NCBI GenBank assembly: GCA_017499595.2
Contig: CM039002.1
Coordinates: forward strand, 2,294,001-2,358,000
Direction of reading: 5' to 3'
DNA: 64,000 bases
DNA from: Psilocybe cubensis
Taxonomy: Eukaryota
A model generated the notes under the pieces. The model saw only the letters and a program-made list of their open reading frames with translations, did no database searches and was not told the DNA's origin. Below are positions 1 through 54,784 of the stretch, in pieces. Made by a program: the position numbers and the translations under genes. Each line of letters starts with the position of its first letter. Position 1 is the first letter of the stretch.

Positions 1-2000
1 GGAAGTGTCGTGTCGAGGCTGCGCCTGCGTCGACCAAGGGATGTTGGTGGTGGGGTGGTAGGTCGGCCCCGCTTACAACTCCCCTTGGATTCATCTGGGG
101 TTATTGGCGACATGTGGGTCGAGGTAGCAACTGGCGGACCGTGGAGAGATGAAGGGCCTGAGCAAGACACAGAGGATGACAGTGGCATTACCAACATTGT
201 GTCAACTGTGATACTCGTCAAACCACCCGAGTCGGTTGTCGTTCCTACTGTCATCGGGGTGGGGTCCGGTTCAATAGTGTCGTACCATGGCGTATCTTCC
301 CGATCGTACGGGGCCGGCTGAGGGCTGGGGTCACGTCTGATTATTTTTGCGGGACGTGATAGTCTGCCGCGCCCAGGCTGGCGTGTCTCGTAACGCCCTC
401 TGTGCGGTTCATGGTGGCCCTTCTGCACAAATGCACCAGCCAACTCCGAGGGTGGAAGCAAATGCTTACAAAAGTCCCATTCATTCTTGACTCCGTTATA
501 GACCTTTTGGTGAGCTCCAAGCGCGGTCTCCTCCCGTTCATGTGCCGACTTGGCTATGTGTTGGCGCAGGTAAACACTGGACCCCTCGGTGGATACTAGA
601 GTTTTCCAAACAAACACCTTAGTTTGATTGATGGGCGGGTCTGTCTCACGGTTCAACCGTATTATCCTCTCTTCTTCAGTCTCTGTGGCCAAAATTTTCT
701 GCCGCTCCCTGACCCGCGCAGCCCAGTATGCATCCCAGTCATCATGTACTGACGAGAGCAGCCTTAGGTTTCCATGTGGCAATTCAATCATGTGCAGCGT
801 AGGCAGGTTAGCACTATCAATGGCGAGTTTGCGCTGTTCCTCGTCTTTCTGTTGTAGTGCAGCCTCCATTTCTTCGAATGGTCTGGACATGTATCTATCC
901 AGTGCCTTGGGGTCATGGGCAAAATGGTTGCTCAGGATAGAGTACACCAAAGTTCGCGAATACTTGTCTCCAAGGACCTTCATGGTTAGCCCTTCGGTCG
1001 GATGAACATGGCTGAAGAATTTACGAGCAAAAGCGGCTGCGAAAGAGACGTCCATGGACTCAAATAACTCAGTCAACAGCTGAGCCAACAGGTCATGCGG
1101 GGGCTGAAGGTGTGGATTCACATTGAGATGAGTAACAATGAACTCCTCTTCCTGTATGCGCCATGGATAATATACTGGAATGGAGTGCTCCAGAAACCAG
1201 TCGACAGGGGGGCGTGTCGGGTGGGTGCTAGTCCAATCATAGACAATACCAGCTCGCGGTGTTTTGGCATCGTATGAATAGACATTGGAGTTGTAAAATC
1301 CATCCAGCCATGCTTCTGTAATTTCTGGGTGTTCGGAGCGCAGCCTGTGATGCCATGCTGGGACGGGACTTCGAGGATCATGTTTGATATGTCTTGAATG
1401 AACCTCTCGACGACTTTGGGCGCAGAGATACGACAGGTACCCCATCCATAGTATGAAAGCATTCCGGCTGGCATTGATACTGCGGTAGGCGGCTTCCTCA
1501 GTGCGATGTTTAAGCATGTACCCCAAGCTTTGCGGGACTGGTGGTGGCGTCCCCGGTATGCGACACCACAGGCGCACTTTTTCAGCCACCAGGATTAAAT
1601 TGACCTCGCAGTCGTACCATTTTCGTTGTTCCAGCGTGTCCATGGCCCAGGTAGGCGGTTGCTTTGGCACCCGTGGGTTCATCTGGCCATCCCTATGGCA
1701 AAATAACTTTGGACTCCAGCACAGAAATTCGAACGGCAAGGACACAAAAGAGGGCGACAGTGGAAAGAAAGCCATCCATCCATATGAATCATGCCACCGA
1801 ATGGGTTGCTTGAATCCCTCCAGTTCTAGGTCGTGCAGGGACGCATCTGTCGATGTGAATTTGCGTGCAAAGACCTCTTTAAAGTCCTGGTTGGGAGGGG
1901 GGATGAGGACCACTCACTTGGAGTTGGGTGACGCATAGATTGTGCCCTTCTGAATGAATGCCGACCCTTCCGACCAATTGATGGGTGCTTGGTTTGGCAT
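1..2000 (-). pseudogene. Long intronless hypothetical gene ('gene X', Agaricales transposon-associated family); runs off the left edge; early nonsense codon
   Basis: ATG at 2000 (MPNQAPINWSEG...). TGA at 1914-1916 corresponds to CGA (Arg) in the copy at 51178+. After that the frame stays open for >600 codons to position 1 (...RNAFILWMGYLSYL...WDAYWAARVRERQKILATETEEERIIRLNRETDPP...NEWDFC). Absent from the ORF track because it has no stop inside the window. Confidence 0.7.
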
Positions 2001-2501
2001 AAAGAACAATCTAAGAGCCGCCCATATTAGTTATCTGACAGACCGGGGAGGAATAGCATCTAAACTTACACAAATGCACTGCGTGTCAGAGTGGTTTTGG
2101 TGTTGGAGCACGCAGACAAAGAGTTGTTATCGCGAGCTGGAACAGAACAAGGCTGCAGAAGAGCTTCTGTAGTCTTGAACGTTATGGCCAGCGAAGAAAG
2201 CTACAGAAGAGCTTCTGTAGTGTTCAATGGAGTCTACGACGCGTCTGGCTATGGAAGAGCTTCCGTAGTCAGTTGGCGTGCAAACGCGGGTGGTCGCCCA
2301 ATGCAATACCCAGAATTGATACAGAAGACCTTCTGTATCAAGCGGGATTGGGGGGTGTCCAAGGCAAGGACTACAGAAGAGCTTCTGTAGTCGTGGGCGT
2401 GCGTTGATGATGCGGATAACAAGAGGTACTGCTGTAAGTCAGGCGGAGTATCAGGCGGAGTACTAGATTTACAAGTGATGCCCGCCTATATTTGTTGATT
2501 G
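1469..2501. repeat. Inverted duplication arm A (partner 50680-51709)
   Basis: Reverse complement matches 50680-51709 (coordinate sum ~53178) with scattered substitutions and small indels; matching ORFs 1954..2172(+) and 51006..51224(-). Confidence 0.92.
2148..2392 (+). repeat. Array of five palindromic hairpin repeats (core CTACAGAA-GAGC-TTCTGTAG) with unique spacers
   Basis: Loops at 2161, 2209, 2257, 2327 and 2379 (periods 48, 48, 70, 52 nt). Stems of ~10-14 bp with G:T wobbles and compensatory changes. Confidence 0.85.
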
Positions 2502-3275
2502 CAATTATAACATCCTAATATAACCAGAAGCAGGTGCCAAACTATATTCATGGTTTGGAGGCTTTTTTACAAGGTTTCTACTGAAATTGTTGTGATATAT
2601 AACGATGCATGCGATAATTATCAAAATCTGGGGTACAACAGCGCGCGCAGCATCAACGTTAGTCAAACAACCAGCCACCTCCATTTCTACAATTAACTCG
2701 TGAACCATAAGCTAGTTCTCCCGACCTGCCATTAAACTCTCGTCAAGTTATTCCAAGTTCTTCGACATTTGTTCAAGAAGATGCCTAGGTCAGGAAGTTA
2801 ACAGCGATGCTGTTCTGAATGCTTAGCGTGCTAGGAGACGTCCATAACACAACTGCACGATGTGTAGAAAAGCCGTTAAAGTTTCTGGTTTATAAATAAT
2901 CATCTTCCTACCTTGCGTATTTCATTTTCTATTATTTCTATCTGTTCAAGTTTGCTAGTAGTTTGTCTGTTTCTCATTCATATCTTGTATCGTAAAATAT
3001 TTCCGCAGAGTGGCGTTGCTGATAACTTTCCATGGGCGGTGGGGAACTAAGAATTAGTGTCACTGCAAAATACCCTCCCATGCTAGGTAAGCACGCCATC
3101 TAACCTTACAAATCATACATACCATGTGATGAATAGTCTTACAGTTTGGTGCATTAGCTAGATTGGATGGTAAAAGGTCTATTCAGCGTATAGTAAATGT
3201 ATAGCAACTTGTCACCGACATGAGCGTGGAACCTGCGCATGTTTACTAATCCAGCTATGTAGGACCAGTACAACC

Positions 3276-4418
3276 TTATGACTGCTCCGGATCCGTATGA
3301 TACGATGGCAAGGCTGAATGAGTAAGGGATGAGTGGCTGCTTGTCGATGCAACAAATGAAGGATCTCTTGAATCGTTGCAAGATGATATGACGGTCAAAG
3401 TCGACAATTCTGTGAGGGATGTCATTGTGCGTTGATCAACCCCTTCCTGCGAACGAAAATAATAAAGGAGCTTTTCGATGATGACCGGGATATTCAACAG
3501 CAAGGTTGATATGACGACCTGAAAAAAGTTGAAATTGCGAAATGGTAGGAGTAAGTGGTAACTTACTGGTGCATGGAGCAAGTATGCCATTACATGTCTG
3601 TTATATCCAAATCGCGATGGATAGATTGACAGGAAGATGGCACTGCCCATGAGCCAGGTCAGAAAGCTAAGGACTAAACGTGATGCCAAAGGTTCTTCAA
3701 GTTGAACAGTCCATATATGGTGAAATAAAAATAAGCCCAGAATTGTTTCAGCTGTGTTTAATCAAGTATAAAGTGAGATCATATGCATGAGGACAGAGAA
3801 TGTTACAACTAACTTGTAAATGCAAAAATTAAAACAATGTGAAGAGGGTGACAGATGCAGGTGTTATCCGTGCATTGAGAAGGTAGACGACAAAGTGCAG
3901 AAGATAGCACCCCAAATGTCAGGCCACATACGACTATGAAACCTGCAATAAACCATGCCCGTCGAAAATGTGATCGGATTCTCGACCTTCTGCGGGTTAA
4001 TGACATGAATAGGCTGGCCCTGGAACACCTAAGAACCAATGTGAATAGATTAAGAAGCATGAGGATCTGTGAAATTTAAATTACCAGATACAAAGAATCG
4101 CGAATGCCCATTCCAAATGATATATTGATCGGAAGCGTGTCGTGACTGTGAAGCAACGGTCAGGTGGATACAGTAACAAATGTTTGAAGGCTGACAATCG
4201 AACACCAACAATACCAATTGAACGACTTCAACCACACCTGCAGCGACAGCTAGGCAGTCATCTGCGGAGAAAGAAGCATAACTCCAAACCGTTCGAAACA
4301 CCGCCGTCGCAATAGCGAGACAATGTACGGAAAGAAGCACGGCTTACAGAGGAGATACGTCAAAAATCAATTATAAGCTTGGAAGGCTTGCTGAAAACAT
4401 ACCATAGGTTAGGTTCAT
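3276..4418 (-). CDS. Multi-exon integral membrane protein, fungal rhodopsin-domain (PTH11-like) family, paralogue 1
   Basis: MNLTY|AVLLSVHCLAIATAVFRTVWSYASFSADDCLAV..., several hydrophobic segments, Cys-rich loop (CRLPSQCTDNTCIC), Ser/Thr-rich tail. Same layout as the genes at 34139 and 43652. Confidence 0.6.
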
Positions 4419-7079
4419 ACTGCGATGCAAGCAAAATTCAGCTGGTGGTAAGAGAATGAACACGTTGCGGTCGGTGACAAGGCTGCCAGCGCCGACAGCA
4501 ACATTGCTTCTGGGCTCCCACATTGCCCCGCTTCAACATGTGTTTGGTTTAACGTAACTACAGAAATGGTGAGCAGAAGATAAAAGAAAGATGATCTGAA
4601 TGGAAACCTACCACTAATTGGACCATAGATGCCAGTTCGTTATCTCATCGGTCCTCCAGACGAACTTGTTTGCCCTGCCTAACCCATTCTCATCTACGTA
4701 GCCCATCTAGTCAGCAGTTTCCAACGTCATTTAGCACATACATCGAAAAAACTCACAATGTCACAAGCGCCAAGCTACCAGGTACATCGAGCGTGTTACT
4801 ATGTTTTCCATGCGCTAACAACCTATAGAACGAGGTCAGCAGAGTCCGAGCAACACTTCACTTGAGGAGATGTACAAAGGCAAAAGAGAGAATTCGTTGC
4901 ATATGTTATGTACACTCTTGGGGATGGCATTCGTTAAAATCTGGGCGCAAAGGGCAAGCAAAATGTCCGAAATTGTGGGTCTATCATCCTGCGTTCGTTA
5001 TTTGAGACCGACTTCATTCGATGTGACATCTGCAAGAGAAAATAAAGTCAGGGCATTAGAATGCTTGCCGCTTGTACAGAGCATGTCATTAATATTGGAA
5101 TACTACTCGCCATTTATTCAAGTTGGCTTGGTTTCGGTTGGGTATGCCTTGTTTAAAACCTTCCAAAGATCGCCGCCTATCCTTAAATTTGAATCAAGGT
5201 GAGTGACTTTTTTGGCTGGCGTTTATTATAATGACTCACTGTATTCACATTCTACACAGCAACCTTGACGGGGATTTTATTCATTCTTGGTCGAATAAGG
5301 GGATTCCATAATGCAATTATTTGGACCAAGGCGTTGTATTTTTGCATATGCAGGTGGTCGGCTTCTGGATTTGAATGTATTGACCTTGGAAGAAAATGCG
5401 GCCCCCCCGTGTTTCGTACTGTCGACAGACTGCAGTCGCCCACTAAAACTCCAAGGGCATTCATCGAGCAAAGAGGGGTTGGGTAGCTGGTGCACGCCAC
5501 ACTGTCGAAAGATTCATTTGGTGAGATGTGCATGCCTATTACCGACAGCTTGACACTCACCAAATACGGTTTCTATTATTTCGCCGCACCAAAACTCCCT
5601 CGTTACACCAAGTGCCCCTTCATCAGCCTTTCAAATAACTATTGGAAGTGCGAACTCAAAGAACCTGGCTAATCGGTAGGTTAATCGTTGTATTTTGTTT
5701 AAGAAAGGATTGCTGGAAAAACGGTGGATAGATTGTCGGCTCCTTGCCAAGTCGTTTGCAAATTTAAAGGCGATGGGCGCTGGTAAAATAAATCTTTGCG
5801 GGGATCCGAAACGCTAATCGATGATCTCTGAAGCAGCAGTAGGACGGTTCGAAGCGAGGTAGAAATGAACTGGATAAGGGACTGAAGGAAGGATGCAACC
5901 ATGAACTGATCACATGCCGGGTTAGGTGATGATTCACAGGTCTCCCTTTCGCGTTCTATGTGCCACTTCCATGATACTGTGCTATTCTCTGTATATTATA
6001 TACGCCACGTATGGATCCATTTTATGACTATTAAAATAACCTTGTCCCTCTCAACGTCGACTACATATGTTTCTTGATTCCCAAGCTAAAATTTCGGTCT
6101 TCTCTTTCTACCTCAACAAGTTCCACCGTCCTCGGTATGTTTGGCTGCACATATCTAGAGTTTTTCCATGTAATTCTGGTCTACTCATTAGCCGCCTAGG
6201 ATCACTGACGCACAACCGCTAGTCACTGCTTACAAGCGTACCTCTTTCCACCCGCCTCCTCTTGTGCCCGAAATCAAAGTCACTCCTCCACTTCTCCACC
6301 GACCACTTCAGGCTTCAGCATAGACGGCAGAGTGAGTGGACTCAGTGTCTCTGCTGGGAATCGCTCTCCCGTTTTGGTTGGTTTTCTGACTCTTGGTTCT
6401 ATCTCTGTTGCTCTAGGCGCGCTACTTGCAATCAGCTACTTGCAGTCACAACCCCAGCACAGTTCCTCACAACCCACCCACTCCCAATTTATGGTGACAA
6501 ACCGGCGTAGGGTGGCTACTTGCAGGAAGAAATCCTGTCTAATCCCATTGTTCCATGATTACTTTTGAACCATGTTCCTCGACTACAACGAAACCCGCTA
6601 CATCGAATCTTCATTGACTTACCGCAAGTTATCATCAGGCTTTCCCCTCCTTATACTAGTTCTCCCGTAAACAGTGTCACCCATTCCATGCCCTTTTTCT
6701 CCCCGGGCGCATGTCATCATTCTTCCAGGATATCGTCTTAGAGCTCTCTGGGTGATTTGGGTTTGTTTAATGTAAGTCATTGGCTTTGATCTTTCATATA
6801 TAGTATCTAATTATCTATGGTTACCAGGCTCTGCCGTTCACTAAACCAGCCAGAAAGATTGTGTTTTGTTAGCCTCATCTCGCCAGAATCCAATGTTATA
6901 GTTAGTTACCATTCATATGGTGTAAATCCTGAACTTTCACATTTCCAGCGCTTATATGCGCCTTTTTCAGGGTCGTACGCCATGTCCAATATTCGGCCCG
7001 ATGCACACATGCAAAGATCGTCCATTATGCACATGTCGAGATCGTCTGGCATATCCTCGAACAAACGCTGGCCCTTGCG
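4214..7079. repeat. Near-identical inverted duplication arm B (partner 31055-33920)
   Basis: Position x pairs with 38134-x over 2866 bp with only a few SNPs; the ORF track lists almost identical translations on opposite strands. Confidence 0.97.
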
Positions 7080-8622: not shown

Positions 8623-9849
8623 TCAGTCAGCCGCAAGGCTCTCAATGGCAGAAAGGGCTTCTGAAGCCAAGCGTTCAGATAAAAGGTGGACATTGTGGTC
8701 TTTGCGGTATTTATCCCATGTAGTCCTGGTGTTCCAAGTGGGTTTGCCTTCTTTTGAGCGTAGACAATGGTCTGCACACAGGGGATGCAGAATAGGAGTT
8801 TCCCAAAAACCATAAATGCCATCTTGATCTACCCATCCTTGTTCATTGTCAATGTAAAGCCATAACTGTGCATCTTCAAAGGATTGGGCGTTTGGAATCC
8901 TGTGGGTGATAACGTCACCAGGATTGGGGTTTGGCAGAAGAAAACTGGGTACATTCGAAAGCTTGTCAGGCGAATGACAAGTGATCAGTCGATACTGGAC
9001 GGTTTCCCCTTTGGATTTGAAGGTACCAATCGTGGAAGTCATGGTTTTGATCAAACGCAACCTTTCCTCTGTTGAATCTGAGCGAGACTACAGAAATGAT
9101 TCAAATTTGGTCAGATGGTCAAGAATGAACACCACTTACATGACCTGAAGGAGAGGCGGTTGACGAAGTTCGATGTGCGTTCGACCTCTACAACACTTTA
9201 TTAATGGCCGGGTTCACAAAGAGGTAAGGAACTTACAGAGGGTCCCGCCGAAGATGAACGTGGGTTCCTGCTAGAGATAGTAGATGACTTCTTTCGCCTT
9301 CGATTATCCAATGCAAGGGAAATAGAGGGACCTGCGGCGTCACTTTCACTTTCCGACTTTGGCTCGATATCTGTTTCCACGGTGTTGGGCGGACGTCGGA
9401 TCGATACCTCTTCACGGCTCTCTCTCTCTTTTTCTCCTGCCCTCCTTTCTTCTTCATCTGCTCTGGGTACCTGCGGCACCTCTACCTGCTCCTGTGGAGT
9501 ACTAGTTCCCTCCGGTCGTTGTCTCGTTTCCGGTTCGGTTTGATTGGCTCTTTCGGCGTCTTCACGGGACTGGGAGGGCTGGACGCTGGACTGATTTAGC
9601 ACTCTGCCATACAACAACAAACCGACGCACTGATTTTCTAGGTTGTTATGCTCTTCAGTATTGCGTAGCCAGTCTGCAAAGTCGTAAGTCAGGATCTAGA
9701 TGGATCGGTGGCATCTCAGTACGATTATTACATTGGTATCATTTCTGAAACCCATCGCTCACGTCAATTAATGGATATTGTGGCATTTGCCTGAAAGCAG
9801 GGCGCGAGGAGAGGGGAAGATTTTGAGGAGCTGGAGTATCTGGGTCCAT
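8623..9849 (-). CDS. Hypothetical multi-exon protein ('gene Y') with C-terminal PxPGDVITH...QLWLY...W...HP...G.P.W domain
   Basis: Start MDPDTPAPQNLPLSSRPAFRQMPQYPLID, charged low-complexity middle and conserved C-terminal exon; clear paralogue at 27808-29485. Confidence 0.7.
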
Positions 9850-10299
9850 CGTGTGGTGTGCTCCGGTCTCAGTTTCGATGATCGTAATCTATATATATAT
9901 ATATAGCATCGCTCTTTGAATATTCAAAGCTGAGTAGCAAATTAAATATCAAGACGGTTCCCGTAAACTTTTGATCCAATTTTAAAATTGATGGCAACAT
10001 TTGGGACAGCATCAATTGCAATGATAGTAATAATGTTTCCTTATAAGGTGCAAATCCAGGGTAAGGGCCTTTACGGCCAATAATATTACGGTAGGCCCCC
10101 ATTTCCACTCTTGATATAAGAATATTGGTGACTAAGTTTTATACTCGAAAAGGCGGCTTCGAATAATTATGCACCTGGCCGACAATACCTGCCCATGGCT
10201 TCCAGTAATATATCAAAGTCGGATAATTTGGTGGCTACGTCCGTCTTTGTATGTTAGCAAGTCCGGCCAGCGGCGTATCTATAAGTATAATATGTAGTA

Positions 10300-18421: not shown

Positions 18422-21191
18422 CACTAGTCCCTACCACTTTTTATGATAAAACAATAGCAAGTGTTAGCACACTCTTTTTATAACTGTTGATGGTTTTATC
18501 ACAAAGCAAAATAATGAGAAGACTGGTCTATTTCTCATAAGTTTACTTCGCTTTTTCAAAGCCTTTTTCATTAGATAATACCCTTCTTTCTCATTATCTT
18601 TAGGGCGCTTTTTCATTACCTTTTGATTAGATACTAGCCTGGTTATTTGATAAGATTGTTCTACATCAATATATCTTATCTTTGCTTGGTCATTTCTGAT
18701 GCCATGCCATCAAATCAGGAACACTGTGGGTACTTCTAGGCCATGTCTATCAATCCATCAAAGCTATTATTAAATAAACTTTTCTCTCCTCGGCCCCTTG
18801 GTCTATAAATAGTGCTCATCCTATGCTACTTTTGTGCATTGCTGGCAATGGATTGGGCGCTTTTGGGGGCATTTCTGGACCGTTTCCCTTGGTGTTTTTT
18901 GGTAGACCTATAGTTTTAAAGTGTCCCAATCCGAATATGAAATCAGAATTGCAATATCTTTACTCATTATTGTGCAATTAAGCGTACGATGTTTTGATCA
19001 AAAAGCGCACCTTGAATAGCACCATCCAGGGGCTGGTATGCACCATTTTTACTATGCAATTATTTTTTATTTATAATAGACGGAGTACATGCCAAGTTTC
19101 AGATCAATTGGAGCAGTGGAACCTATTGAACTAGGATGTGCACCCTACCCCTCCTCCTACCCCTTGTACAAATGCCTTCCTGATCAGATAAATTTTTGCC
19201 CAACCAGGGCTGGGTAGGCGTCCATTATACCAATTTTTAGAGCCCAAAATCTTGGTGCAATTCTAAGATTTAAGGGTACTACCCCCTACTCCCTCCAGAA
19301 CTTGTGTATTTTATTATGGGATAGGATGGGCTCTCAGACCATTGAAAGACATGTAGATCCACTACAAACAGTACATAGAGTCCAAAATTTACCCTTGAAA
19401 GCCCTCTTCAACAAGGGAACATACTGATTTAAGGGGGGGTATGAGGATAGGTATGGTAGGTTATTGATCAGGCCATATCTCTACAAATACATTGTCATAA
19501 ATCATATTCTTGACGTCTACAGATACCTATAGTTGCCCCCTAAATATCTTTCTTAGGCTGCAAAAAGATCCGTCCATTAGCGGAGATGCTGCAGAGGGAA
19601 TACCATTCTTCATCAAAATGCATAGTATTTTCGCATTTACCATATATAAATGATTATGATCAGGAAATATAAAAGCAGGATAGTATAGCCTCAAAATGCA
19701 GCTTTCCAGAACATCAAGGATGTTGCGCATCGGACCAGTGGTTGCTGAGATATGGAAAGAAAGGTGTTGAAGAACCCATTAGAGACCCGGATGGATATTG
19801 GCCTTTATTTATGCTTTGTTTGTGGTCACCTCTTTGGCCTTTCTCCGAGATACATTTTGACATATCTCAGCTCATACTCATCGGATTCCCATGAGTCTAT
19901 ATACCACAGATAGGTGTCATTTAGGGCTACACAGCCGTATAGTTTATGTATTTTATAAGTGTTATCTTTTACATCATATTTTGCTTTTCCTCCATTTTTG
20001 AACAACAATGCTTCTTCTTCTTGTACCATCTTGTTAAGCGTTCTGGTCATTTGGCAGTATGAATATAATATGTAGAGGACCTTAGTAGCTATCTGTGAAT
20101 GTAAGATATGTGCATTTTGGTGAAGTATAAGTGGTGATATGGTCATATTATGTTGTACATCCAATACCTTTTTATTAGCCTCATAACCAAGGTGTTCCCC
20201 TTCACTCTGAATGCTTCAAAGATATATATTGCGTCTGTGGTACTATATAGAGCAGATTTACATACCTATATGTGCTGGAAATGGCCATTCTACCCCATAA
20301 TAAAATATACAAATTCTGGAGAGGATGGGGGGTAGTACCCTTAAATCTTAGAATTGCACCAAGATTTTGGGCTCTAAAAATTGGTATAATGGACGCCTAC
20401 CCAGCCCTGGTTGGGCAAAAATTTATCTGATCAGGAAGGCATTTGTACAAGGGGTAGGAGGAGGGGTAGGGTGCACATCCTAGTTCAATAGGTTCCACTG
20501 CTCCAATTGATCTGAAACTTGGCATGTACTCCGTCTATTATAAATAAAAAATAATTGCATAGTAAAAATGGTGCATACCAGCCCCTGGATGGTGCTATTC
20601 AAGGTGCGCTTTTTGATCAAAACATCGTACGCTTAATTGCACAATAATGAGTAAAGATATTGCAATTCTGATTTCATATTCGGATTGGGACACTTTAAAA
20701 CTATAGGTCTACCAAAAAACACCAAGGGAAACGGTCCAGAAATGCCCCCAAAAGCGCCCAATCCATTGCCAGCAATGCACAAAAGTAGCATAGGATGAGC
20801 ACTATTTATAGACCAAGGGGCCGAGGAGAGAAAAGTTTATTTAATAATAGCTTTGATGGATTGATAGACATGGCCTAGAAGTACCCACAGTGTTCCTGAT
20901 TTGATGGCATGGCATCAGAAATGACCAAGCAAAGATAAGATATATTGATGTAGAACAATCTTATCAAATAACCAGGCTAGTATCTAATCAAAAGGTAATG
21001 AAAAAGCGCCCTAAAGATAATGAGAAAGAAGGGTATTATCTAATGAAAAAGGCTTTGAAAAAGCGAAGTAAACTTATGAGAAATAGACCAGTCTTCTCAT
21101 TATTTTGCTTTGTGATAAAACCATCAACAGTTATAAAAAGAGTGTGCTAACACTTGCTATTGTTTTATCAAAAAGATGGTAGGTACCACTC
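18422..21191. mobile_element. Non-autonomous foldback DNA element, 2770 bp, with ~0.85 kb inverted arms and 7-bp TSD ACATAAT
   Basis: ACATAAT at 18415-18421 and 21192-21198. 18444-19286 is the reverse complement of ~20328-21170. AT-rich, no convincing ORF. Confidence 0.92.
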
Positions 21192-22874: not shown

Positions 22875-24719
22875 TAGACATCTGGAAAATGAAAGGTTAG
22901 AACACCCGAAATAAGGAAAAAATGGCGAAAATTATGATATACCAGGTTATGAGTTGGTATTAGTGGGATTTTGGATAGGGAATTGTTTAAGAAGAGTCCT
23001 AGAACTTGAAAGGTGAACTTACCAGAACCGATGCTGAGGTCAACACTGTGATCACGTGGAACCAAACACAAGTGGGTCCCATGGACTATATGAGTACATG
23101 ATCCCGAAAGGCAAACAAGCGCAGAGAACGGCGTTTTTCAGGCGCTGTCCCGTTACAATTTCTTGGAGTATTTATTGCAGGATCGAAATACGACAAGACT
23201 CGGGCTTTTAGAATAACGGATCACCAATTCAGGATTAGCACTGCGTCCCAAAGATCTCAATATATAGCATCAATAAATCTAGATCTGTCTGAACCGGGGG
23301 CGGGCGGGCGGTTATCGCTGTATACGCAAGGAAAGTCATAAGAACATACCACTACAGGCCTGTATAGTCAGAAGCCAAAATACGGAAGCTCGACGATACG
23401 GACTTCAATCGTGGAGTTTGTGCCGAAAAGATGCACTGTTGATGATGTTGGTAAACGAAAGCGTTCAGCATGCGCATGCATACCAGTATTGAGCGTACCA
23501 GCGTTGAGCATACCAGCGTTGATTACGTTGAACGTATGTACCACAGATCCCTCGATAGCGTAGTGACAGTGGTTAGGCTTGGATTTATATTGGCTGCATT
23601 ATCGGGATAAATGCTAGAAAATGCGTTGTCCACGGGTTATTTAAGTCAACAACAGTTTTCCCGTCAGAAACCAGAAAATTAGACCAGTAGGAAGTTACAG
23701 GACAGTTGAACTAAGACAGGAGGATGGAAAGCAGGACCAAAGTTACGATTGGTACAACAAAAGAATGTGCCTCCCATTGCCCACCAACCATGTGATCTCG
23801 ATCTCTAATTCTTATGAACCTTCGATACCCTACTACATCATGGACTTGTCACGGACGGATACGATCTGCAAGGCCCCTGCAAGACCTCGACGTTTAACAT
23901 CAAGGTCAAGATCAGCTTACGAGTGGACTATAACTCCCAGAGGTCAAGCTTTTACTTCTTCCTCTTCACCCTTGCCAGTCGCCGCCCTTCGATGTTCATC
24001 TATTTTTCGTACATCGCCTCCGACTTCCCGGCTTCTACCACCAAGGCCTAGTCCTGAACATAATCTCTTATAAGCCTCTCGAAATATCCTCTCGGCTTCA
24101 AGCCTCTTCATGGTACTCACATCTCTCAGGGGAGAAGCCTTACCTGGCGTTTCCTAACCCTTCTTCAGTTGCGGGTGAAGGACAACTAATCGGGGATGTC
24201 CTTACAAAGGGGTTTTTAAGCAGAGAAGAGGAGAATTTGAAAAAGACTTTGTGGGATGTCGTGAATGGTACTATGGGTGGGTATCAAGTTTTATGATAAT
24301 TGGCCTTCTAATGAAAATGGTTTGTTAGACTCACCATCGCGAAGAGGTGCCTTAAGAAGGAGAGTTTGGCACGGAAAGCCAGAGCTCTGTTGGAGTTGAC
24401 TAGTTGTGGCCAGATGGAGACGGCTACGTCTGAAGCGCTCTGCAACGTGGACGGCGTAACTCGAAAAATACGAACCTGCAGATTTAACACGTTTCCCAAG
24501 TTCCCCGCTCCTATGGAGGGAATGGATTCTCATGGTCATGGAAAGTTTAAGAACGCAAACATGGTGAGTAATCACCCAGATTAACCTTTTGTCGGGATTA
24601 TGATTGAGATAAATTTGAATTAGTACATCGTTAAACAAGAGCAGCACTTTAAATCTACCTTCTTACAAGCGTTCTGAAGGTTCAAAATCTTCTTCGGTCA
24701 ATCATCATAGAGGAGGATT

Positions 24720-25480
24720 TATTTCTTTTACCTGTCTGTACGCCTCCACATGGGCGAAGTTGTGGTGTCGGGCGTGTTGTAGCTTCATCGAAATCCTACA
24801 TAGGATCTTTTGCTTTCGGGCCCATGAGAAGGGATTCAACCAACAAATGTCTTCCAAATTTGATCAGCAACACGTCTTGCGAATATGCACCGGCCTAGCT
24901 TCATCGCTTTCGGGCCCATGAGGATCAGGGATTCGACCAGCAAATGTCTTGCAAATTCGATCAGTAACACGTCTTGGGAATATGTGCCGGCCTAGCTTCA
25001 TGGAAATTCTACATAGGATCCTTGGCTTTCGGGCCCATGAGGAGGGATTCATCTGGCCAGCAAACGTCTTGCGAATATGCGCTGGCCTAGCTTCATCGAA
25101 ATCCTACATAGGAGTCGTTACTTTCACTTGTCTGTACGCTTCCACGTGGGCAAAGTTGTGGTGTCGGGCGTATGGGGAGAGATTCAACCAGCAATACGTT
25201 TGCCAGCATGCGCCGGCCTAGCTTCATCGAAATCCTACCTAGGATATATTGCTTTCGCCTGTCTGTACGCCTCCATGTGGGCGAAATTGGAGGGATTCAA
25301 CCAGCGACATATCGTGCCGGCCTAGCTTCATCGAAATCCTACATAGGATCTTTGCTTTCACCGTCTTCACGCCTCCACGTGGGCGAAGTTGTAGTGTCGG
25401 GCGTATGGAGGGATTCCCAGCAACATGTCTTGCGAATATGCGCTGGCATAACTTCATCAGAGGACAAACTGGCAAATACG
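24720..25480. repeat. Modular degenerate tandem repeat array (~6-7 units, ~95-130 bp)
   Basis: Recurring modules (CCT)AGCTTCATCGAAATCCTACATAGGA (near 24781, 24894, 24991, 25086, 25217, 25321), GGGATTCAACCAGCAA, CGTCTTGCGAATATG and GGGCGAAGTTGTGGTGTCGGGCGT. Confidence 0.85.
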
Positions 25481-31054: not shown

Positions 31055-33920
31055 CGCAAGGGCCAGCGTTTGTTCGAGGATATGCCAGACGATCTCGACA
31101 TGTGCATAATGGACGATCTTTGCATGTGTGCATCGGGCCGAATATTGGACATGGCGTACGACCCTGAAAAAGGCGCATATAAGCGCTGGAAATGTGAAAG
31201 TTCAGGATTTACACCATATGAACGGTAACTAACTATAACATTGGATTCTGGCGAGATGAGGCTAACAAAACACAATCTTTCTGGCTGGTTTAGTGAACGG
31301 CAGAGCCTGGTAACCATAGATAATTAGATACTATATATGAAAGATCAAAGCCAATGACTTACATTAAACAAACCCAAATCACCCAGAGAGCTCTAAGACG
31401 ATATCCTGGAAGAATGATGACATGCGCCCGGGGAGAAAAAGGGCATGGAATGGGTGACACTGTTTACGGGAGAACTAGTATAAGGAGGGGAAAGCCTGAT
31501 GATAACTTGCGGTAAGTCAATGAAGATTCGATGTAGCGGGTTTCGTTGTAGTCGAGGAACATGGTTCAAAAGTAATCATGGAACAATGGGATTAGACAGG
31601 ATTTCTTCCTGCAAGTAGCCACCCTACGCCGGTTTGTCACCATAAATTGGGAGTGGGTGGGTTGTGAGGAACTGTGCTGGGGTTGTGACTGCAAGTAGCT
31701 GATTGCAAGTAGCGCGCCTAGAGCAACAGAGATAGAACCAAGAGTCAGAAAACCAACCAAAATGGGAGAGCGATTCCCAGCAGAGACACTGAGTCCACTC
31801 ACTCTGCCGTCTATGCTGAAGCCTGAAGTGGTCGGTGGAGAAGTGGAGGAGTGACTTTGATTTCGGGCACAAGAAGAGGCGGGTGGAAAGAGGTACGCTT
31901 GTAAGCAGTGACTAGCGGTTGTGCGTCAGTGATCCTAGGCGGCTAATGAGTAGACCAGAATTACATGGAAAAACTCTAGATATGTGCAGCCAAACATACC
32001 GAGGACGGTGGAACTTGTTGAGGTAGAAAGAGAAGACCGAAATTTTAGCTTGGGAATCAAGAAACATATGTAGTCGACGTTGAGAGGGACAAGGTTATTT
32101 TAATAGTCATAAAATGGATCCATACGTGGCGTATATAATATACAGAGAATAGCACAGTATCATGGAAGTGGCACATAGAACGCGAAAGGGAGACCTGTGA
32201 ATCATCACCTAACCCGGCATGTGATCAGTTCATGGTTGCATCCTTCCTTCAGTCCCTTATCCAGTTCATTTCTACCTCGCTTCGAACCGTCCTACTGCTG
32301 CTTCAGAGATCATCGATTAGCGTTTCGGATCCCCGCAAAGATTTATTTTACCAGCGCCCATCGCCTTTAAATTTGCAAACGACTTGGCAAGGAGCCGACA
32401 ATCTATCCACCGTTTTTCCAGCAATCCTTTCTTAAACAAAATACAACGATTAACCTACCGATTAGCCAGGTTCTTTGAGTTCGCACTTCCAATAGTTATT
32501 TGAAAGGCTGATGAAGGGGCACTTGGTGTAACGAGGGAGTTTTGGTGCGGCGAAATAATAGAAACCGTATTTGGTGAGTGTCAAGCTGTCGGTAATAGGC
32601 ATGCACATCTCACCAAATGAATCTTTCGACAGTGTGGCGTGCACCAGCTACCCAACCCCTCTTTGCTCGATGAATGCCCTTGGAGTTTTAGTGGGCGACT
32701 GCAGTCTGTCGACAGTACGAAACACGGGGGGGCCGCATTTTCTTCCAAGGTCAATACATTCAAATCCAGAAGCCGACCACCTGCATATGCAAAAATACAA
32801 CGCCTTGGTCCAAATAATTGCATTATGGAATCCCCTTATTCGACCAAGAATGAATAAAATCCCCGTCAAGGTTGCTGTGTAGAATGTGAATACAATGAGT
32901 CATTATAATAAACGCCAGCCAAAAAAGTCACTCACCTTGATTCAAATTTAAGGATAGGCGGCGATCTTTGGAAGGTTTTAAACAAGGCATACCCAACCGA
33001 AACCAAGCCAACTTGAATAAATGGCGAGTAGTATTCCAATATTAATGACATGCTCTGTACAAGCGGCAAGCATTCTAATGCCCTGACTTTATTTTCTCTT
33101 GCAGATGTCACATCGAATGAAGTCGGTCTCAAATAACGAACGCAGGATGATGGACCCACAATTTCGGACATTTTGCTTGCCCTTTGCGCCCAGATTTTAA
33201 CGAATGCCATCCCCAAGAGTGTATATAACATATGCAACGAATTCTCTCTTTTGCCTTTGTACATCTCCTCAAGTGAAGTGTTGCTCGGACTCTGCTGACC
33301 TCGTTCTATAGGTTGTTAGCGCATGGAAAACATAATAACACGCTCGATGTACCTGGTAGCTTGGCGCTTGTGACATTGTGAGTTTTTTCGATGTATGTGC
33401 TAAATGACATTGGAAACTGCTGACTAGATGGGCTACGTAGATGAGAATGGGTTAGGCGGGGCAAACAAGTTCGTCTGGAGGACCGATGAGATAACGAACT
33501 GGCATCTATGGTCCAATTAGTGGTAGGTTTCCATTCAGATCATCTTTCTTTTATCTTCTGCTCACCATTTCTGTAGTTACGTTAAACCAAACACATGTTG
33601 AAGCGGGGCAATGTGGGAGCCCAGAAGCAATGTTGCTGTCGGCGCTGGCAGCCTTGTCACCGACCGCAACGTGTTCATTCTCTTACCACCAGCTGAATTT
33701 TGCTTGCATCGCAGTATGAACCTAACCTATGGTATGTTTTCAGCAAGCCTTCCAAGCTTATAATTGATTTTTGACGTATCTCCTCTGTAAGCCGTGCTTC
33801 TTTCCGTACATTGTCTCGCTATTGCGACGGCGGTGTTTCGAACGGTTTGGAGTTATGCTTCTTTCTCCGCAGATGACTGCCTAGCTGTCGCTGCAGGTGT
33901 GGTTGAAGTCGTTCAATTGG
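31055..33920. repeat. Near-identical inverted duplication arm B' (partner 4214-7079); includes a 5' fragment of rhodopsin-domain gene 1 (ATG 33716) cut at 33920
   Basis: Reverse complement of 4214-7079; identity stops abruptly at both ends. Confidence 0.97.
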
Positions 33921-34138
33921 CGTAGTTGTTCTTAGTTTGTTAGTTTGTTCATTCAATGTCGCCAATCGCCACGCCCAGATCACGAAGCCTAAAGTTTGTC
34001 ACATCTGTTTGGTTTTCTCTTTTTACCATCATCTACTATCTGCCACGTCAATCTCATTTTTGTCGAATTGCTCAGCCATCCTCATCTCCATCCCTTGCTT
34101 CCTCCTCAATATTACTGTATATATATTTATACCGCGAC

Positions 34139-46435: not shown

Positions 46436-49400
46436 TCAGTCTAGGCTATGTAAATTCGAATCATTTTCATCCCCGAATGAAGAGAACTTCAGCAGCAACT
46501 GTACAATGAAGTGAAAAGTAAGTCTGCGCTCTGGAGATTGACGAAATAGAGTTTGTACGAACTCGGTCAACGGGTAGCACATGCAGGAGACCTTTGAATC
46601 GACCTTCATTAAACCTAGTGAGTGCAAAATGCGATTTAACCTGGGATGCAAGTATTAAGGATTCACGATTTGTGCTGTTGCACAAAAATCCCCCGAAGAT
46701 GTGCTCCCTATACGGATCGGGATCCGAGATAGGCGAAAGTTCTTGCACAATAAAGAAAAAGTTATCACAATCTCTACCATCAGAGTTGAGATAACGGTAG
46801 TGTAAGATGTGCATTACAATGCCAGCCGAATCTTTCGAAGAATCAAGACCCTGATATATGATAGGGCTGTCCCTGAAAGTGGAAGATGATGAAGTCCCGT
46901 AACACAGGCCATTGCGAGAGATTTCGTTGAGAAAAATGGCTTCTCTCGGCATCATTTCACTGTTGGAGCTTCTGCCGAGTAGGGTGCAAATCTTTGTATG
47001 GTTATTGGGGTCTAAAGTTCCAATTTGAGGTTTAGAACGAGGTGTGTATTCGGGGCATTCGGGTTCCAGAAGCGTGAGGAGCCTGAAGCCGCGAGCGTCT
47101 TCGCAATCAATCTTGTCCATGACGGAAATGAGCTCTTTCAACGAGGATTTCAGGCCAGCGTCACTATTCAAAACAGAACGTATGTTTGCGCTGCGTGCGG
47201 CTGTGCGTAACATGGTAGCTTCGAGCTCTCCTGCAGTTTGCATGGATTTATTCATTAATTAGAAGTGCTGAACAAAAAATGGTTGTAGGAAAACGTACCA
47301 GTCTTTGAATTGGTGTTGACTTGATGAAGAAAATTAATATATCTCTCGTAGTGCGGACTACTATGCGAATGATTTGGTCCAAATAAGCCTAACATGTCTC
47401 CGATATGGAGGCAAGCATGGTGATGTGGCTTTAACTTTTGATCGGGGTATAGTGTCCGAATGTTTTGGATGTATCGATGAATGAAGAAATTATAAGAGTC
47501 GATCTGGTTAGCGGATGTGACACGCATGTTGGCTATACAAACAGCCGAGACAAGATCCATGAAATGATTGAGGAGATTTCTTTGACGTTCCGAACCATTG
47601 CTCCAAAGTCGAATAAGAGTAATAGGTAGATGTATGGTGGATACAACTCTCCAATTATTAGCCGTTAGCTTGCCTCTCTGGGTCGTCCCCCAATTCGGTG
47701 GAGCGCGGGTAATCCAAGACGGTGTCTGGGTACAGTGCATGTCATTCCAAACATTAGTCATGACGTCGCGTCCCAGGACTGGACGAGAACGTTCAATTAG
47801 CTGGCGGGAGCTCTGAGGAATGAAAGCCTCCAATTCTTCAATGGATTCTGGGGAGTTCTCGATCTAAATTGGGGTCAATGTTTATAAGAGTCAAAGGCTC
47901 ACAGCGGGTGTAGAATCATACCCGATCAATAATTTTCTCGTATAACTCTCGCTTGGGGAATCCTCTGGCCAGACGCCTTACGTCAGTACGATTTATCTGC
48001 ATCAAGTCACATATGTATGCCAGGGTGGTCCCATTGGATTGATGAAACGCCATGGCACGGGAGGCGTCATCGTTTTTAACGAGATTCCGCAAAATTCGAA
48101 TCACTTGCGCTCGATCTATTCCACCTTGTGGAGGCAGCACTACTGGTACAGAAGGCTCAGCTTGTGGCTGATCGACCACTACCGGCGGCAACCTCGTCCG
48201 AGTCAATCCATGATAATTGGCACTTTGCCTCTAATTTCCAAATCCAAAGCTGAGAAATTCAATCACAAAGGTGTAAACCAAATTACGCACCCAAGCATGG
48301 ATATTTTTTGCCAATACCCACTTTGTTCCAACTACTAATTGATGTCCTTCTCCTCTAATATCTTCATCCACACAAATTTTGTACAGGACTGAGCGTGGAT
48401 GCAGCAGGAGATCAGTCACCATGGTGTCTGCGTTTGCGCGTATTATGCTAACGCATTGGTTAAAGGAGGTACGTTGCTCCTTCGTGAAAATCGGCTCTGC
48501 ATGCGCAGCAGGAGGGGCTCTTGTCAACCCATCACCACCATCATGGCTGAGATCTATTTGAAAAATTGAACGACAATGGTTTTGGAGAAGGTTGAGGTCG
48601 AGCGCATGCATGGGATCAACAACAGTGTGACGAACGATATCCCAATACGGAAGACGATGGAAAGGCGACCATTTGATTCCAAAGGATGCAAAAATAGATT
48701 GTTGATCCTTCTCTGTGCGAGCGTCTTTCCATTGATGGGCGATGTTTCGAATGTCTTGAATATTCTTGGAAGGCCACTCAGACCGATCGAGTATGTCGAT
48801 GTCGTCAATATCAATGTCGCAAAAGGTGCAGAAGTGGTGTGAGGTGGCTGAACTATAGCCAATGATCTGCCGGACCCCCAGCATATCACAAATCAAGGGA
48901 ACAAGCATGGCTCTAAAAAGTCTTCCTAAAGGGCATTTCTCCGTACGTGAGAACCAAACTCCAGTCATCCAAAATTCTAAAAGGTCGTCCATAACAAGGT
49001 CGATATATGGGAAAATGCCTTCTTTTGGCGGTTTGTCGGGTCCTGAAATGACACCAGCAAGGTACATATTTTCGTGCAAATATCGGAGATGCTCCGGAAG
49101 GTTCATCAATACCATCCAAATGCCTGTCGACAACGCAGTCTGCTTCGCAGTTTTCATATGAAAGGGATTGAAACTATCGACGGAAAGGCTAAACACTAAC
49201 CGACCCTCTCCATCCTTTCCAGGAAAGAAAGCGTTACCGAATCGGTCTTTGAGGTTTTTGAACATATCTGTGTTCCATATATCCTCTACAGGGGAAGAGG
49301 AAGGTATTCCAGAAGCACGGTCGGTGTCGATTATTGCCTCCATGCCATTCCGCGACAATAAACGCCCCACCCAAGTCTTCAGATCCTGATGAATATACTT

Positions 49401-50487
49401 CCGGAGAGGTTGCATACGTGATTCCCCATTCCCTCCTATTGGAATTTTTTTCCAAAGTGGCGCCCCACATGGAAGCGACTCGGGGGTGTTGAGGTGTTCG
49501 CAGTGAGTTATGAAGGGTTCATGTTCGTTATCCGGACTGTCGCCGGGTTGGAAGGGATACAAACTATGACATGAAGGGCAAACAATGAATTGACGAGTCG
49601 TTGGTTCAAGACGGGCACGAGAGGCGCCTGCTCAAGGGTCCTTTGGCATTGACTTCATAAGAAGTTGGGGTGCATCGATTCCTCGAAGCAGGCTTTTGTG
49701 ACCAGCCAAAAGAATACGTAATGCCCGACGACTTACGAAAAACATGTTTTCCATAACGAGTGAGAGAGATGTGGCCACTTTTAAAACCGGGTTCAAGGGG
49801 CCAAAGGGTTGAAAATGTACATCTGAGTGAAAATGTTCACGTCAGTCTCACACCATACCAGGCAGATCAATAGCTGAGCGAACCTGTATTGACGAAAGGG
49901 ATCCCAATGCCATGGTCCCCCCGTTGCTGTGACCATTCAATTTCTTTCAGTCGAGTCAGGTTGCCCATTTTATTTTCGATGAGTTCCAGAAAATCTTCGG
50001 TTTCTTCAGGTGGTTGCAATTGTGATGCCAGACGGTAGAGTTCTTTCAACCGTGTTGCAATGGAAATAAATGTCCGGTTGCATTGGTCACTGGTGAGCGC
50101 ATAAAGGCTTTGATGTTCGGGTCTGAATATTTCTTCGGAGGAGGGCCATGCAAATTCGCCATTGTCTTCTGGAGGGTTCACAAAGATGAGTGGCCTTGAG
50201 GGGTTGATGATTGGCAAAGACATCAGAACATTGACTTCAAGGGTTGCCAGTTCAACCCAACTTGGAGGGGGGTTAGACAAATTAGTCGAATTATTTTGGA
50301 CAATGAGGGCCATGGAGGTAGCACTGGCATGGTCATCTCTGACATGGTTGTCTCGAGTTGATCTCGACACAAGTTGACCGCCTTCGTAACAACCTGTCAC
50401 CGGGTTGAAGATGGAGCAGTAAGATTGGCAAGTGCAGAGGATTAAGTTAGACCGTTGCTGACGACCTCCACTTCTGCCCCTTATCAT
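46436..50487 (-). mobile_element. En/Spm (CACTA/CMC) Tnp2-type transposase gene, multi-exon, with one in-frame stop
   Basis: LVFSLSVDSFNPF...MNLPEHLRYLHENMYLAGVISGP, ICDMLGVRQIIG...HHFCTFC, WSPFHRLPYWD...VDPMH, GKLTANNWR, PHHHACLH...FGP...YERY. TGA at 49632-49634 in PKDP(R). 3' end approximate. Confidence 0.88.
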
Positions 50488-50679
50488 GGCTGCTAGATGG
50501 ACGTTGAGGAAGAGCTAACCCAGGTAAGTTGTTGAAAAACCCGAGGTGCGACCTTCAATTTCGGTAATTATATAACTGATGTTCATCGTCAAGCATAGTC
50601 ATAGAAGTAATTTTCCTGTGATCCACGACCAAAGAGCTTTGGAGGTGGATGATCAGAGGAAATTAAATTAAAGTGCTTA

Positions 50680-51709
50680 CAATCAACAAAGATAGGGGGG
50701 GCATCACGTGTAAATTTAGTACTCCGCCTGACGTACAGCCAGTACCTCTTGTTTATAACCACATCATCAACGCACGCCCACGACTACAGAAGCTCTTCTG
50801 TAGTCCTTGCCTTGGACACCCCTCAATCCCGCTTGATACAGAAGGTCTTCTGTATCAATCCTGGGTATTGCATTGGGCGACCACCCGCGTTTGCACGCCA
50901 ACTGACTACGGAAGCTCTTCCATATATAGCCAGACGCGTCGTAGACTCCATTGAACACTACAGAAGCTCTTCTGTAGCTTTCTTCGCTGGCCATAACGTT
51001 CAAGACTACAGAAGCTCTTCTGCAGCCTTGCTCTGTTCCAGCTCGCGATAACGACTCTGTGTCTGCGTGCTCCAACACCGAAACCACTCTGACACGCAGT
51101 GCATTTGTGTAAGTTTAGATGCTATTCCTCCCCGGTCTGTCAGATAACTAATATGGGCGGCTCTTAGATTGTTCTTTATGCCAAACCAAGCACCCATCAA
51201 TTGGTCGGAAGGGTCGGCATTCATTCAGAAGGGCACAATCTATGCGTCTCCCAACTCCAAGCGAGTGGTCCTCATCCCCCCTCCCAACCAGGACTTTAAA
51301 GAGGTCTTTGCACGCAAATTCACATCGACAGACGCGTCCCTGCACGACCTAGAACTGGAGGGATTCAAGCAACCCATTCGGTGGCATGATTCATATGGAT
51401 GGATGGCTTTCTTTCCACTGTCGCCCTCTTTTGTGTCCTTGCCGTTCAAATTTCTGTGCTGGAGTCCAAAGTTATTTTACCATAGGGATGGCCAGATAAA
51501 CCCACGGGTGCCAAAGCAACTGCCTACCTGGGCCATGGACACGCTGGAACAACGAAAATGGCACGACTGCAAGGTCAATTTAATCCTGGTGGCTGAAAAA
51601 GTGCGCCTGTGGTGTCGCATACCGGGGACGCCACCACCAGTCCCGCAAAGCTTGGGGTATATGCTTAAACATCGCACTGAGGAAGCCGCCTACCACAGTA
51701 TCAATGCCA
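50680..51709. repeat. Inverted duplication arm A' (partner 1469-2501)
   Basis: See arm A; begins ~190 bp upstream of the transposase start codon. Confidence 0.92.
50782..51030 (-). repeat. Second copy of the five-hairpin array, between the divergent transposase and gene X'
   Basis: Same five palindromes and essentially the same spacers as 2148-2392; one unit has a TATA insertion near 50921-50927. Confidence 0.85.
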
Positions 51710-52186
51710 CCGGACTCCACCCCGATGACAGTAGGAAAGACAACCAACTCTGGTTCGACGAGTATCACAGTTGACGGGCACTGTCATCCTATGTGTCTTC
51801 CTCAGGCGCGTAACTGCACTTTCTCATTTTTTGGATCTCTCCCAAATACACCAACCGCACCCAAACTTTTATGTTTTTGAAGAACCTCGAGCAGAAAATC
51901 TTCACTGGACGCCTCAAGTCCAGCCAACTTGTGGAAGGTACCTGTCACACAGAACGGATCGCAGTGGGTAGAATGGACCCCTACCAACGAAGCCTGGTAT
52001 CTGGAATGTGTGGAGGCTATCCTCACTCGCCAGGCCCAGCCCTTGACAAGAGGACAATGGAAAACAATGTTGCGCGGGACCCCTCCTAGTCGCAAGCTAC
52101 AGGCTTCGGCATCTCAACGCGCTCAGGCCTTCGTCGACGCGCATGTTTCTGTGGTAGCCTCATTTAATGGTGCCCCAGGTTTGTAG
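51178..52186 (+). pseudogene. Internally deleted copy of gene X
   Basis: Matches left gene 2000->1469, then jumps at CCGGA microhomology (~51710) to left ~270->160 (a ~1.2 kb deletion), then continues into an apparent C-terminal part (WTPTNEAWYLECVEAIL...QWKTMLRG). Confidence 0.75.
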
Positions 52187-53199: not shown

Positions 53200-53499
53200 G
53201 TTGTGGTGGTAGTTGAAGTACCCAATGTGTTGAGAGAGGGCAAGAGGGTAGCTGAGGCAGAAGAGATTTTTTGTAGTGGATGGTGGTGGTTGAAAAGCAA
53301 AAGAAGCGCGTGAAAGATGGGGTCCAATTTTTATACCCAGCATGGCAAACGATGGCAAACGAAGTTACAGTTCAGAGGTTTTGGTTTGGCTGTCTGGCAA
53401 GTATGTATATTCGCCCACAATCTAAAGCAAACATTCTATGTACTAACTATCCTTCACCACCCTGACTTTCCAGAGGCAATCCGCACCTTACGTATACAT

Positions 53500-54636: not shown

Positions 54637-54696
54637 TTTTTAGAACTCTGCTGGGCGTCTTAGGGACTTGAACCATCTGAAATACGAATACCTGTA

Positions 54697-54784
54697 ACCT
54701 GTATGGTGCAGTGGTAAAGTCATTCGTTTCATTCCCTTTTGTTTGTAAGATCGTGCGTTCGATCCCGCACGAGCGTCGTTTTTT
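54697..54784 (+). pseudogene. tRNA-like relic (A box, B box, T-run)
   Basis: TGGTGCAGTGGTA (A box), hairpin TCGTGCG-TTCGATCC-CGCACGA with GTTCGATCC (B box), then TTTTTT. No proper anticodon arm or acceptor stem. Confidence 0.45.

Follow-up and report, generated by a model that had tools for sequence, protein, structure and literature searches.

The window analysed here is a 64,000-nt stretch of Psilocybe cubensis DNA (contig CM039002.1, positions 2,294,001 to 2,358,000). It holds two copies of a gene, referred to as gene X, which encodes an uncharacterised Agaricomycete protein of ~1,080 amino acids with a disordered middle, and each copy is preceded by an array of five hairpin-forming palindromes (Table 1). 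The right array sits between an EnSpm/CACTA-type (tnp2) transposase gene (PF02992, E 2.3e-8 on 48234-49631) and a deleted gene X, and the left array lies before gene X only, without an adjoining tnp2. No pair of terminal inverted repeats was found around the right element. A Helitron-type end (CTAG near 2461) was considered and rejected because CTAG is absent from the right copy. The window gave zero matches to OTT_1508-like deaminases.

Table 1. Coordinates in the window of the gene X copies, their hairpin arrays and the adjoining features
Feature	Position	Strand	Remarks
Gene X, left copy	1..2000	-	N-terminal 636 aa; in-frame TGA at 1916; extends past window edge; 57% identical to P0006
Predicted 59-nt 5'-leader intron, left copy	2011..2069	-	In the interval from array to gene X start; donor, branch and acceptor motifs
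Left five-unit hairpin array	2148..2392	-	Loop GCTC or GGTC on gene X sense strand; stems 9-13 bp
Palindromes of the left array	2148-2177, 2200-2221, 2245-2272, 2316-2341, 2369-2392		
Centre, left copy	2420..2504	.	Homology to right copy stops at ~2504; same junction in reads of other runs
EnSpm/CACTA-type (tnp2) transposase gene	46467..50487	-	Several ORF pieces, divergent from gene X; extent from ORFs
Sixth, inverted unit	50621..50650	-	Core as in the arrays; ~135 nt upstream of tnp2 ATG
Centre, right copy	50651..50781	.	C/G skew changes sign at ~50700; putative divergent promoter
Right five-unit array	50782..51030	+	Unit 3 broken by a 4-nt insertion
Predicted 5'-leader intron, right copy	51109..51167	+	
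Gene X, right copy	51178..52186	+	Internal deletion; P0006 residues 1-171, 784-816 and 992-1079 left

The window also contains several other repeats. A Ty3/gypsy chromodomain LTR retrotransposon at 35252-41645 carries 451-bp LTRs that are 100% identical, which points to a very recent insertion. Two inverted copies of a 2.9-kb sequence with no long ORF (4191-7079 and 31055-33943) are 99.4% identical, and a foldback-like structure at 18427-21186 has inverted repeat arms of ~900 bp (98.7%) around a centre of ~950 nt. Irregular tandem modules of ~95-130 nt, composed of shared sub-repeats, occupy 24714-25458. At 53491-54640, a tract of pyrimidine-rich 10-nt repeats is followed by a near-perfect 22-bp hairpin (54589-54638), and a tRNA-like stretch near 54700 gave no ARAGORN call.

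An initial annotation of this DNA had described five palindromes in the left array with centre-to-centre distances of 48/48/70/52, and this description was confirmed in both copies. Unit 3, as also stated there, has a paired G-C where the other units have A-T, and unit 4 has an altered arm with a palindrome that is still perfect. The array far exceeded chance, with five hairpins in 351 nt compared with a maximum of two in 300 first-order Markov resamples; among the 182 tiles of the window, the array tile alone reached five hairpins. The z-score of its RNA fold was -7.4 for the plus strand and -5.6 for the minus strand, and Rfam gave no match at the gathering score across the whole 64-kb window. 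The two array copies are 95.5% identical over ~1,050 nt (1463-2504 vs 51714-50677), and in the left copy this homology stops ~110 nt past the array. The right array lies 295 nt from the tnp2 ATG (50487), close to the ~300 nt given initially, and the sixth, inverted unit in this interval had been overlooked. We conclude that the five hairpins are real in both copies.

The stems of the window arrays are separated by spacers of 18-43 nt. Only point changes distinguish the spacers of the two copies, and no match to them elsewhere in the window or in 57 gene X loci (see below) exceeds 14 nt. In the best-supported reads and contigs of three other DNA runs, we found spacer substitutions and small indels but zero new spacers. 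The best-supported rows also pointed, by a depth peak, loose ends and joints, to a related family of higher copy number with tandem units that have the core of the sixth unit and other arms.

Among named proteins, the closest homologs of gene X come from Psilocybe cubensis. The family comprises 355 clusters at 50% identity, one species alone has a 14-member cluster, and the proteins across the array-bearing clades are ~25% identical. Gene X copies decay mostly via CGA-to-TGA changes, which indicates CpG methylation, as in methylated transposon genes. The 14-member cluster, the tnp2 and Plavaka neighbours and the CpG decay identify gene X as an accessory gene carried by a DNA transposon. No relatives were found in viral contigs, and no conserved editable or premature stop codon was found in gene X.

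The Pfam copy searched provided no named family and no zinc-finger match for gene X; a precomputed family, PF28437, covers its C-terminal part, is unnamed in that copy and is without mention in the papers searched. For the full-length model of P0006 (pLDDT 80, pTM 0.79), Foldseek returned nothing at E 0.001 from PDB or BFVD, and VIA recovered only generic helical bundles (best Z 6.2, rmsd 3.0, 97 aligned). The predicted C-terminal domain (pLDDT 93, pTM 0.92) reached a best Z of 2.1 among 48,161 chains and had zero Foldseek matches. A profile search of PDB sequences returned nothing, and neither the VANC nor the TnpA (tandem helix-turn-helix) family was among the matches of the fold searches. 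These results do not prove a new fold, nor do they exclude a VANC/TnpA-type family. Two candidates from the ESM Atlas fell under the 0.9 bar and were dropped: an RNA-dependent RNA polymerase (0.83), whose DxDGD-type motif is missing from the alignment consensus, and MPN635_N (0.88).

To see the array in its family, we used 57 homologous loci from one metagenome scan baited with the gene X alignment; only 20 of the 57 are at least 8 kb long. A motif-free scan of 49 regions detected 98 hairpins in 38.6 kb upstream of gene X, 11 of which came from the two window copies, compared with 4 in 36.9 kb of coding control. We also scored a GG-N4-6-CC core, which was derived from the very loci scored, in the 42 loci with at least 450 nt upstream, among which are at least seven near-duplicate pairs. 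Two or more units were present upstream of gene X in 30 of the 42 loci and in none of the 42 coding controls; at least one unit was present in 36, and none was scored in the remaining 6. The array is real and conserved across Agaricomycete gene X loci, and it is apparently undescribed: our literature search, outside whose scope lay subscription journals, Repbase reports and supplements that may hold such elements, found no description of the array or of the gene X protein.

Both halves of the gene X tree include loci with arrays, and the core types track gene X clades. This tracking does not imply co-evolution, because the core and gene X are inherited together. Gene X, named in the initial annotation as the nearest candidate partner, is supported in this role by co-occurrence, but its constant presence is not independent evidence because the loci were fished with it. 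The proposed tie to the transposase was not supported: tnp2 matched in only 1 of the 57 loci, where it lies downstream of gene X, and the left array of the window is without it. Plavaka transposases were found in 8 of the 57 loci, and OTT_1508-like deaminase genes neighbour gene X in 10 (PF14441, E 7.5e-6 and 2.9e-4, half-domain matches below the curated cut-off). Related units also precede other genes (L039, L005, L036), so that family-specific motif arrays lie in the non-coding regions of several element genes. Unit spacing in the homologs is irregular (<10 to >150 nt), spacers are duplicated together with units, and units occur in both orientations.

Some of these loci have further features. 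The large deaminase-like genes beside gene X (L001, L017, L021-L024, L028, L037, L039, L054) have HCE and SK-x-CP-x-C-type motifs with an intron between them, and match OTT_1508-like proteins weakly. In L039 (12889), a hairpin leader of the gene X type precedes an apparent deaminase-like gene. Gene X, Plavaka fragments and deaminase-like genes recur, tandem or nested, within 10-20 kb in L021-L024, L028, L031, L037 and L039. The centre-plus-leader module of L005 is duplicated in inverted form (1127-1726 and 9434-10010, 90%), ends at the start codon position and now fronts a different gene; the idea that it drives a tnp2-like gene was unsupported (E 0.3). A distal-type unit precedes fatty-acid synthase fragments in L020 (17433) and probably relatives of them in L047 (7210) and L022 (12015), which suggests capture of a host gene behind the array at L020 and its probable relatives.

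To analyse the stems, 121 candidate units from 34 loci were oriented around hand-placed centres. Nine were dropped (no clade core, minimal score or mis-sided), and the remaining 112 represent 40 arm types. Each unit consists of a clade-specific loop and core followed by an 11-13-bp stem of free but paired sequence. Stem positions 4-10 pair in 230 of 280 cells (82%) for the 40 arm types, compared with 35% when arms are swapped, and 29-40 unrelated arm types stay 82-84% paired, with a common stem end at position 13-14. Each of the four Watson-Crick pair types is represented at positions 3-13, whereas only 17% still pair at position 14. Mismatches make up ~18% of stem positions, and one-base bulges are present in some units (L001, L017). 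Only the loop and 2-4 bp are fixed; the outer arms are entirely different from one unit or species to the next but remain complementary, and a single array, L014, has four different arm sequences.

Since the 112 units were chosen partly by pairing, the test was repeated with the bare cores. Of 8 outer positions, 5.7 paired in one clade (42 matches), compared with 3.0 after swapping, and 5.1 paired in another (88 matches), compared with 3.5; the same or shorter control cores in unrelated window DNA paired at ~2 of 8. These sequence comparisons support selection on pairing within one strand, as the initial annotation had supposed from fewer units. The units are not plain fixed-sequence palindromes, because the outer arms vary yet stay complementary. 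The stem is kept by covariation and the loop region by sequence, which is a feature of RNA operator hairpins.

Units on both sides of a centre point outward, and the loop reads identically on the outward strand. With the centres placed by hand, this strand has more C than G in all 22 proximal halves and in 21 of 22 distal ones. Such C-richness is also seen at fungal transcription starts. The start codons of Plavaka genes offer a test that needs no hand-placed centre: at eight of eight starts (one duplicate pair included), all 15 asymmetric units within 700 nt upstream were of the sense type and none was antisense. The last unit of these Plavaka leaders ends ~20 nt before the ATG. Between the centre and the gene X start, the sense strand of 17 of 22 loci, the window among them, has an intron-like motif, compared with 7 of 22 for the opposite strand; in L011 and L013, there are units downstream of such an intron. 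On the distal side, outward intron-like motifs were no commoner than inward ones (22 vs 22), and in four loci (L003, L005, L011, L036) the outward units point at the 3' end of a converging gene instead of a gene start.

Two observations concern splicing. Some units in the Plavaka leaders of L026 (1260-1450) and L030 (6350-6420) start with GT, with a pyrimidine tract and AG 53-56 nt later, and these hairpins may cover a 5' splice site. The distal sides of L011 (860-1250), L012 and L014 have repeated modules of ~190-200 nt, each a hairpin, a spacer and an intron-like segment, which could be a spliced non-coding RNA.

The mismatches do not follow the orientation in the way first proposed. The initial annotation had noted five G.T pairs and no A.C on the same strand of the left array, and this count is correct for the plus strand. 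However, three of the five are a single change at one stem position in units 1-3, leaving ~3 independent events, and the two-sided p value is 0.06 even if all five are taken as independent. Moreover, the five units belong to the gene X side of the skew switch, so their mismatches are A.C on the gene X sense strand. In the window clade, the sense strand has 0 G.T and 4 A.C; outside it, the 40 arm types have 33 G.T and 26 A.C on this strand (p 0.44), with 26 pyrimidine-pyrimidine and 8 purine-purine mismatches besides. The largest clade has a near-invariant C.A mismatch on the sense strand. Conserved RNA stems usually favour G-U strongly. The one-strand G:U signature is thus absent from the family, and G-U is not clearly preferred on the sense strand; near-equality of the two mismatches was what the initial annotation had itself named as speaking against its proposal. 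As C-rich flanks would give 8% G.T and 21% A.C, a mild preference for G-U on the sense strand may lie behind the near-parity, although this null is arguable.

Folding energies were likewise not in favour of the sense strand. Its hairpins have -8 to -13 kcal/mol; for window units 1 and 3, the sense strand gave -8.6 and -8.5 kcal/mol compared with -18.2 and -16.6 kcal/mol for the complement, and in a crude set of 20 types only 6 had the more stable RNA fold on the sense strand.

The explanation we favour, at somewhat less than even chances, is that the array consists of operator hairpins in the 5' leaders of element transcripts, which are read by the gene X protein. A leader operator is the simplest account because the stems covary at a fixed length, the loop is sequence-specific and the units are oriented along the next gene. 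Gene X is the candidate reader because it is the sole partner common to elements with differing transposases. The selection on pairing, the fixed stem length, the clade-specific cores, the orientation along the downstream gene, the position before the start codon and the linkage of the arrays to gene X and to transposases are shown by the sequences, and this account builds on them. Against it stand the 33:26 parity, the weaker sense-strand folds, the units facing convergent genes, the lack of an intron excess on the distal side and the 6 of 42 loci without units.

According to this explanation, EnSpm/Plavaka-group transposons of Agaricomycetes would carry gene X together with rows of ~30-nt hairpins in their own 5' leaders, often flanking a divergent promoter on both sides. 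The rows would be transcribed, and each hairpin would fold in the nascent or mature RNA. The gene X protein would bind there, recognising the sequence of the loop and of the first 2-4 bp but only the shape of the remaining ~13-bp stem. It may then switch the element genes as a group, whether by transactivation or anti-silencing, as in the Tat/TAR and lambda N/boxB systems, or by autoregulation. It is more doubtful, though conceivable, that DNA transposons of mushrooms have a regulon based on RNA operators, in which an undescribed ~1,080-aa RNA-binding family recognises clade-specific hairpins with programmable stems in the leaders of every element transcript and turns these transcripts on against host silencing; such a Tat/TAR-like circuit of a cut-and-paste transposon would exist as several orthogonal protein-hairpin pairs.

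The units may instead act as DNA hairpins or cruciforms in supercoiled or transiently single-stranded promoter DNA, bound by gene X protein or transposase and serving as a promoter switch, a recombination site or an end signal. We regard this as unlikely, although it would account for the similar numbers of G.T and A.C, which are expected when both strands fold. It is also in line with the mirror-symmetric layout around the centre, where homology between copies often breaks, and with the whole module of L005, present as a 600-bp inverted copy 8 kb away. The breaks do not fall at one sharp position, however, and the right element has no terminal inverted repeat. Cruciform extrusion tolerates mismatches poorly, and RNA hairpins of -8 to -13 kcal/mol fold readily, so that ~18% mismatched positions in arms of 11-13 bp disfavour extrusion. 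The sense-only units at the one-directional Plavaka starts, the last ending just before the ATG, also speak against DNA hairpins.

Alternatively, the hairpins could act in RNA leaders with a reader other than gene X, through self-damped translation, a host factor, the transposase or an OTT_1508-like deaminase. Units of the same kind are found before Plavaka transposases and other genes, deaminase-like genes adjoin gene X in 10 of the 57 loci, and fungal OLD deaminases favour hairpin loops (PMC12754623). We nevertheless hold such a reader to be rather improbable. The cores differ between gene X clades, which ill suits one conserved host reader, and the hairpin geometry stays constant across elements with different transposase partners (tnp2 here, Plavaka elsewhere). 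Several loop types, that of the window included, contain no A, and gene X has no conserved editable stop codon.

Still less probable, in our estimate, is that the units are ordinary double-stranded DNA sites for a dimeric VANC- or TnpA-like regulator, with the symmetric arms as a by-product of template switching at palindromic cores. Clade-specific cores before several transposon genes and the gain and loss of modules match the VANC target arrays (PMC5735166) and the clusters of TnpA motifs (bioRxiv 10.64898/2026.08.24.746577). Template switching can make whole hairpins in one step (PMC10710096), and the CGA-to-TGA decay of gene X means that there is CpG methylation to escape. Yet a neutral process would not hold 29-40 arm types at 82-84% pairing with an end at position 13-14, and recognition of double-stranded DNA by a dimer would not explain why unrelated outer arms remain complementary over a constant length. 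The four arm sequences within the L014 array, and the bulged units, which would shift one half-site, are further difficulties. Finally, the resemblance to guide arrays raised in the initial annotation, under which gene X would be the effector and the array the precursor of unit-length guide or small RNAs (CRISPR-, TIGR- or miRNA-like), is largely refuted and very improbable despite the repeat-spacer look and the large uncharacterised protein directly downstream: spacers are near-invariant between copies, unmatched in the window and the 57 loci and without turnover in the best-supported reads and contigs of other runs, spacing is irregular, spacers are duplicated with units, both orientations occur, and the stems are far below the ~35 bp of animal miRNA precursors (PMC10710096).

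The gene X family is widespread, and its obvious cognate cis element differs in specificity between clades. The reactivation route described in PMC12730594 uses a captured TET/JBP enzyme, and gene X with its array would be a second, directly testable candidate route for the reactivation of methylated fungal transposons. If the units are RNA operators, they would bring a viral type of regulatory logic to eukaryotic DNA transposons and supply orthogonal protein-RNA pairs. As DNA hairpins, they would amount to a fungal promoter element that is read by its structure. In both cases, the array can serve as a marker for these elements and their promoters.

Several known systems share parts of this arrangement. 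CRISPR and TIGR arrays also have hairpin-forming repeats, unique sequence between them and a large adjoining gene, but the arrays described here have no constant spacer length, no spacer turnover and no spacer matches in the window or the 57 loci, occur in two orientations and have covarying repeats. The fungal OLD-ZAO editing modules are comparable in that OTT_1508-like deaminases lie beside gene X and OLD favours hairpin loops (PMC12754623); unlike in those modules, gene X has no zinc-finger Pfam match and no conserved premature stop, and the window has no deaminase match. Subterminal repeats of CACTA and Plavaka elements lie just inside terminal inverted repeats; the right array lies between two element genes, and in the left copy the homology stops ~110 nt past the array.

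VANC of the Arabidopsis VANDAL elements is likewise encoded by a transposon accessory gene, with family-specific motif arrays of one orientation in the non-coding regions of several genes and rapid gain and loss of modules (PMC5735166). Its motifs, by the same source, are fixed non-palindromic 9-mers bound as double-stranded DNA, whereas here it is mostly the pairing that is conserved. TnpA of En/Spm (CACTA), according to bioRxiv 10.64898/2026.08.24.746577, is the product of an accessory gene beside an EnSpm-group transposase with clustered cognate motifs and possible gene activation; it differs in having tandem helix-turn-helix domains, in binding termini and in being reported there only from flowering plants. 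Compared with the TnpA motifs, the gene X array is internal, between or before genes, and its stems covary. The motif of the gene X array is not a fixed sequence read as double-stranded DNA, which is a feature of the VANC and TnpA systems.

HIV TAR with Tat and lambda nut (boxB) with N are short hairpins near the 5' end of a transcript with loop-proximal specificity and an element-encoded partner, and the boxB hairpins of lambda flank a divergent control region. Their partners are small arginine-rich peptides acting on single hairpins, whereas here there are 2-6 hairpins per leader and a putative reader of ~1,080 amino acids; the host element is a fungal DNA transposon, and the likeness is one of anatomy. 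Taken together, the array resembles VANC and TnpA in its logic and TAR and boxB in its anatomy.
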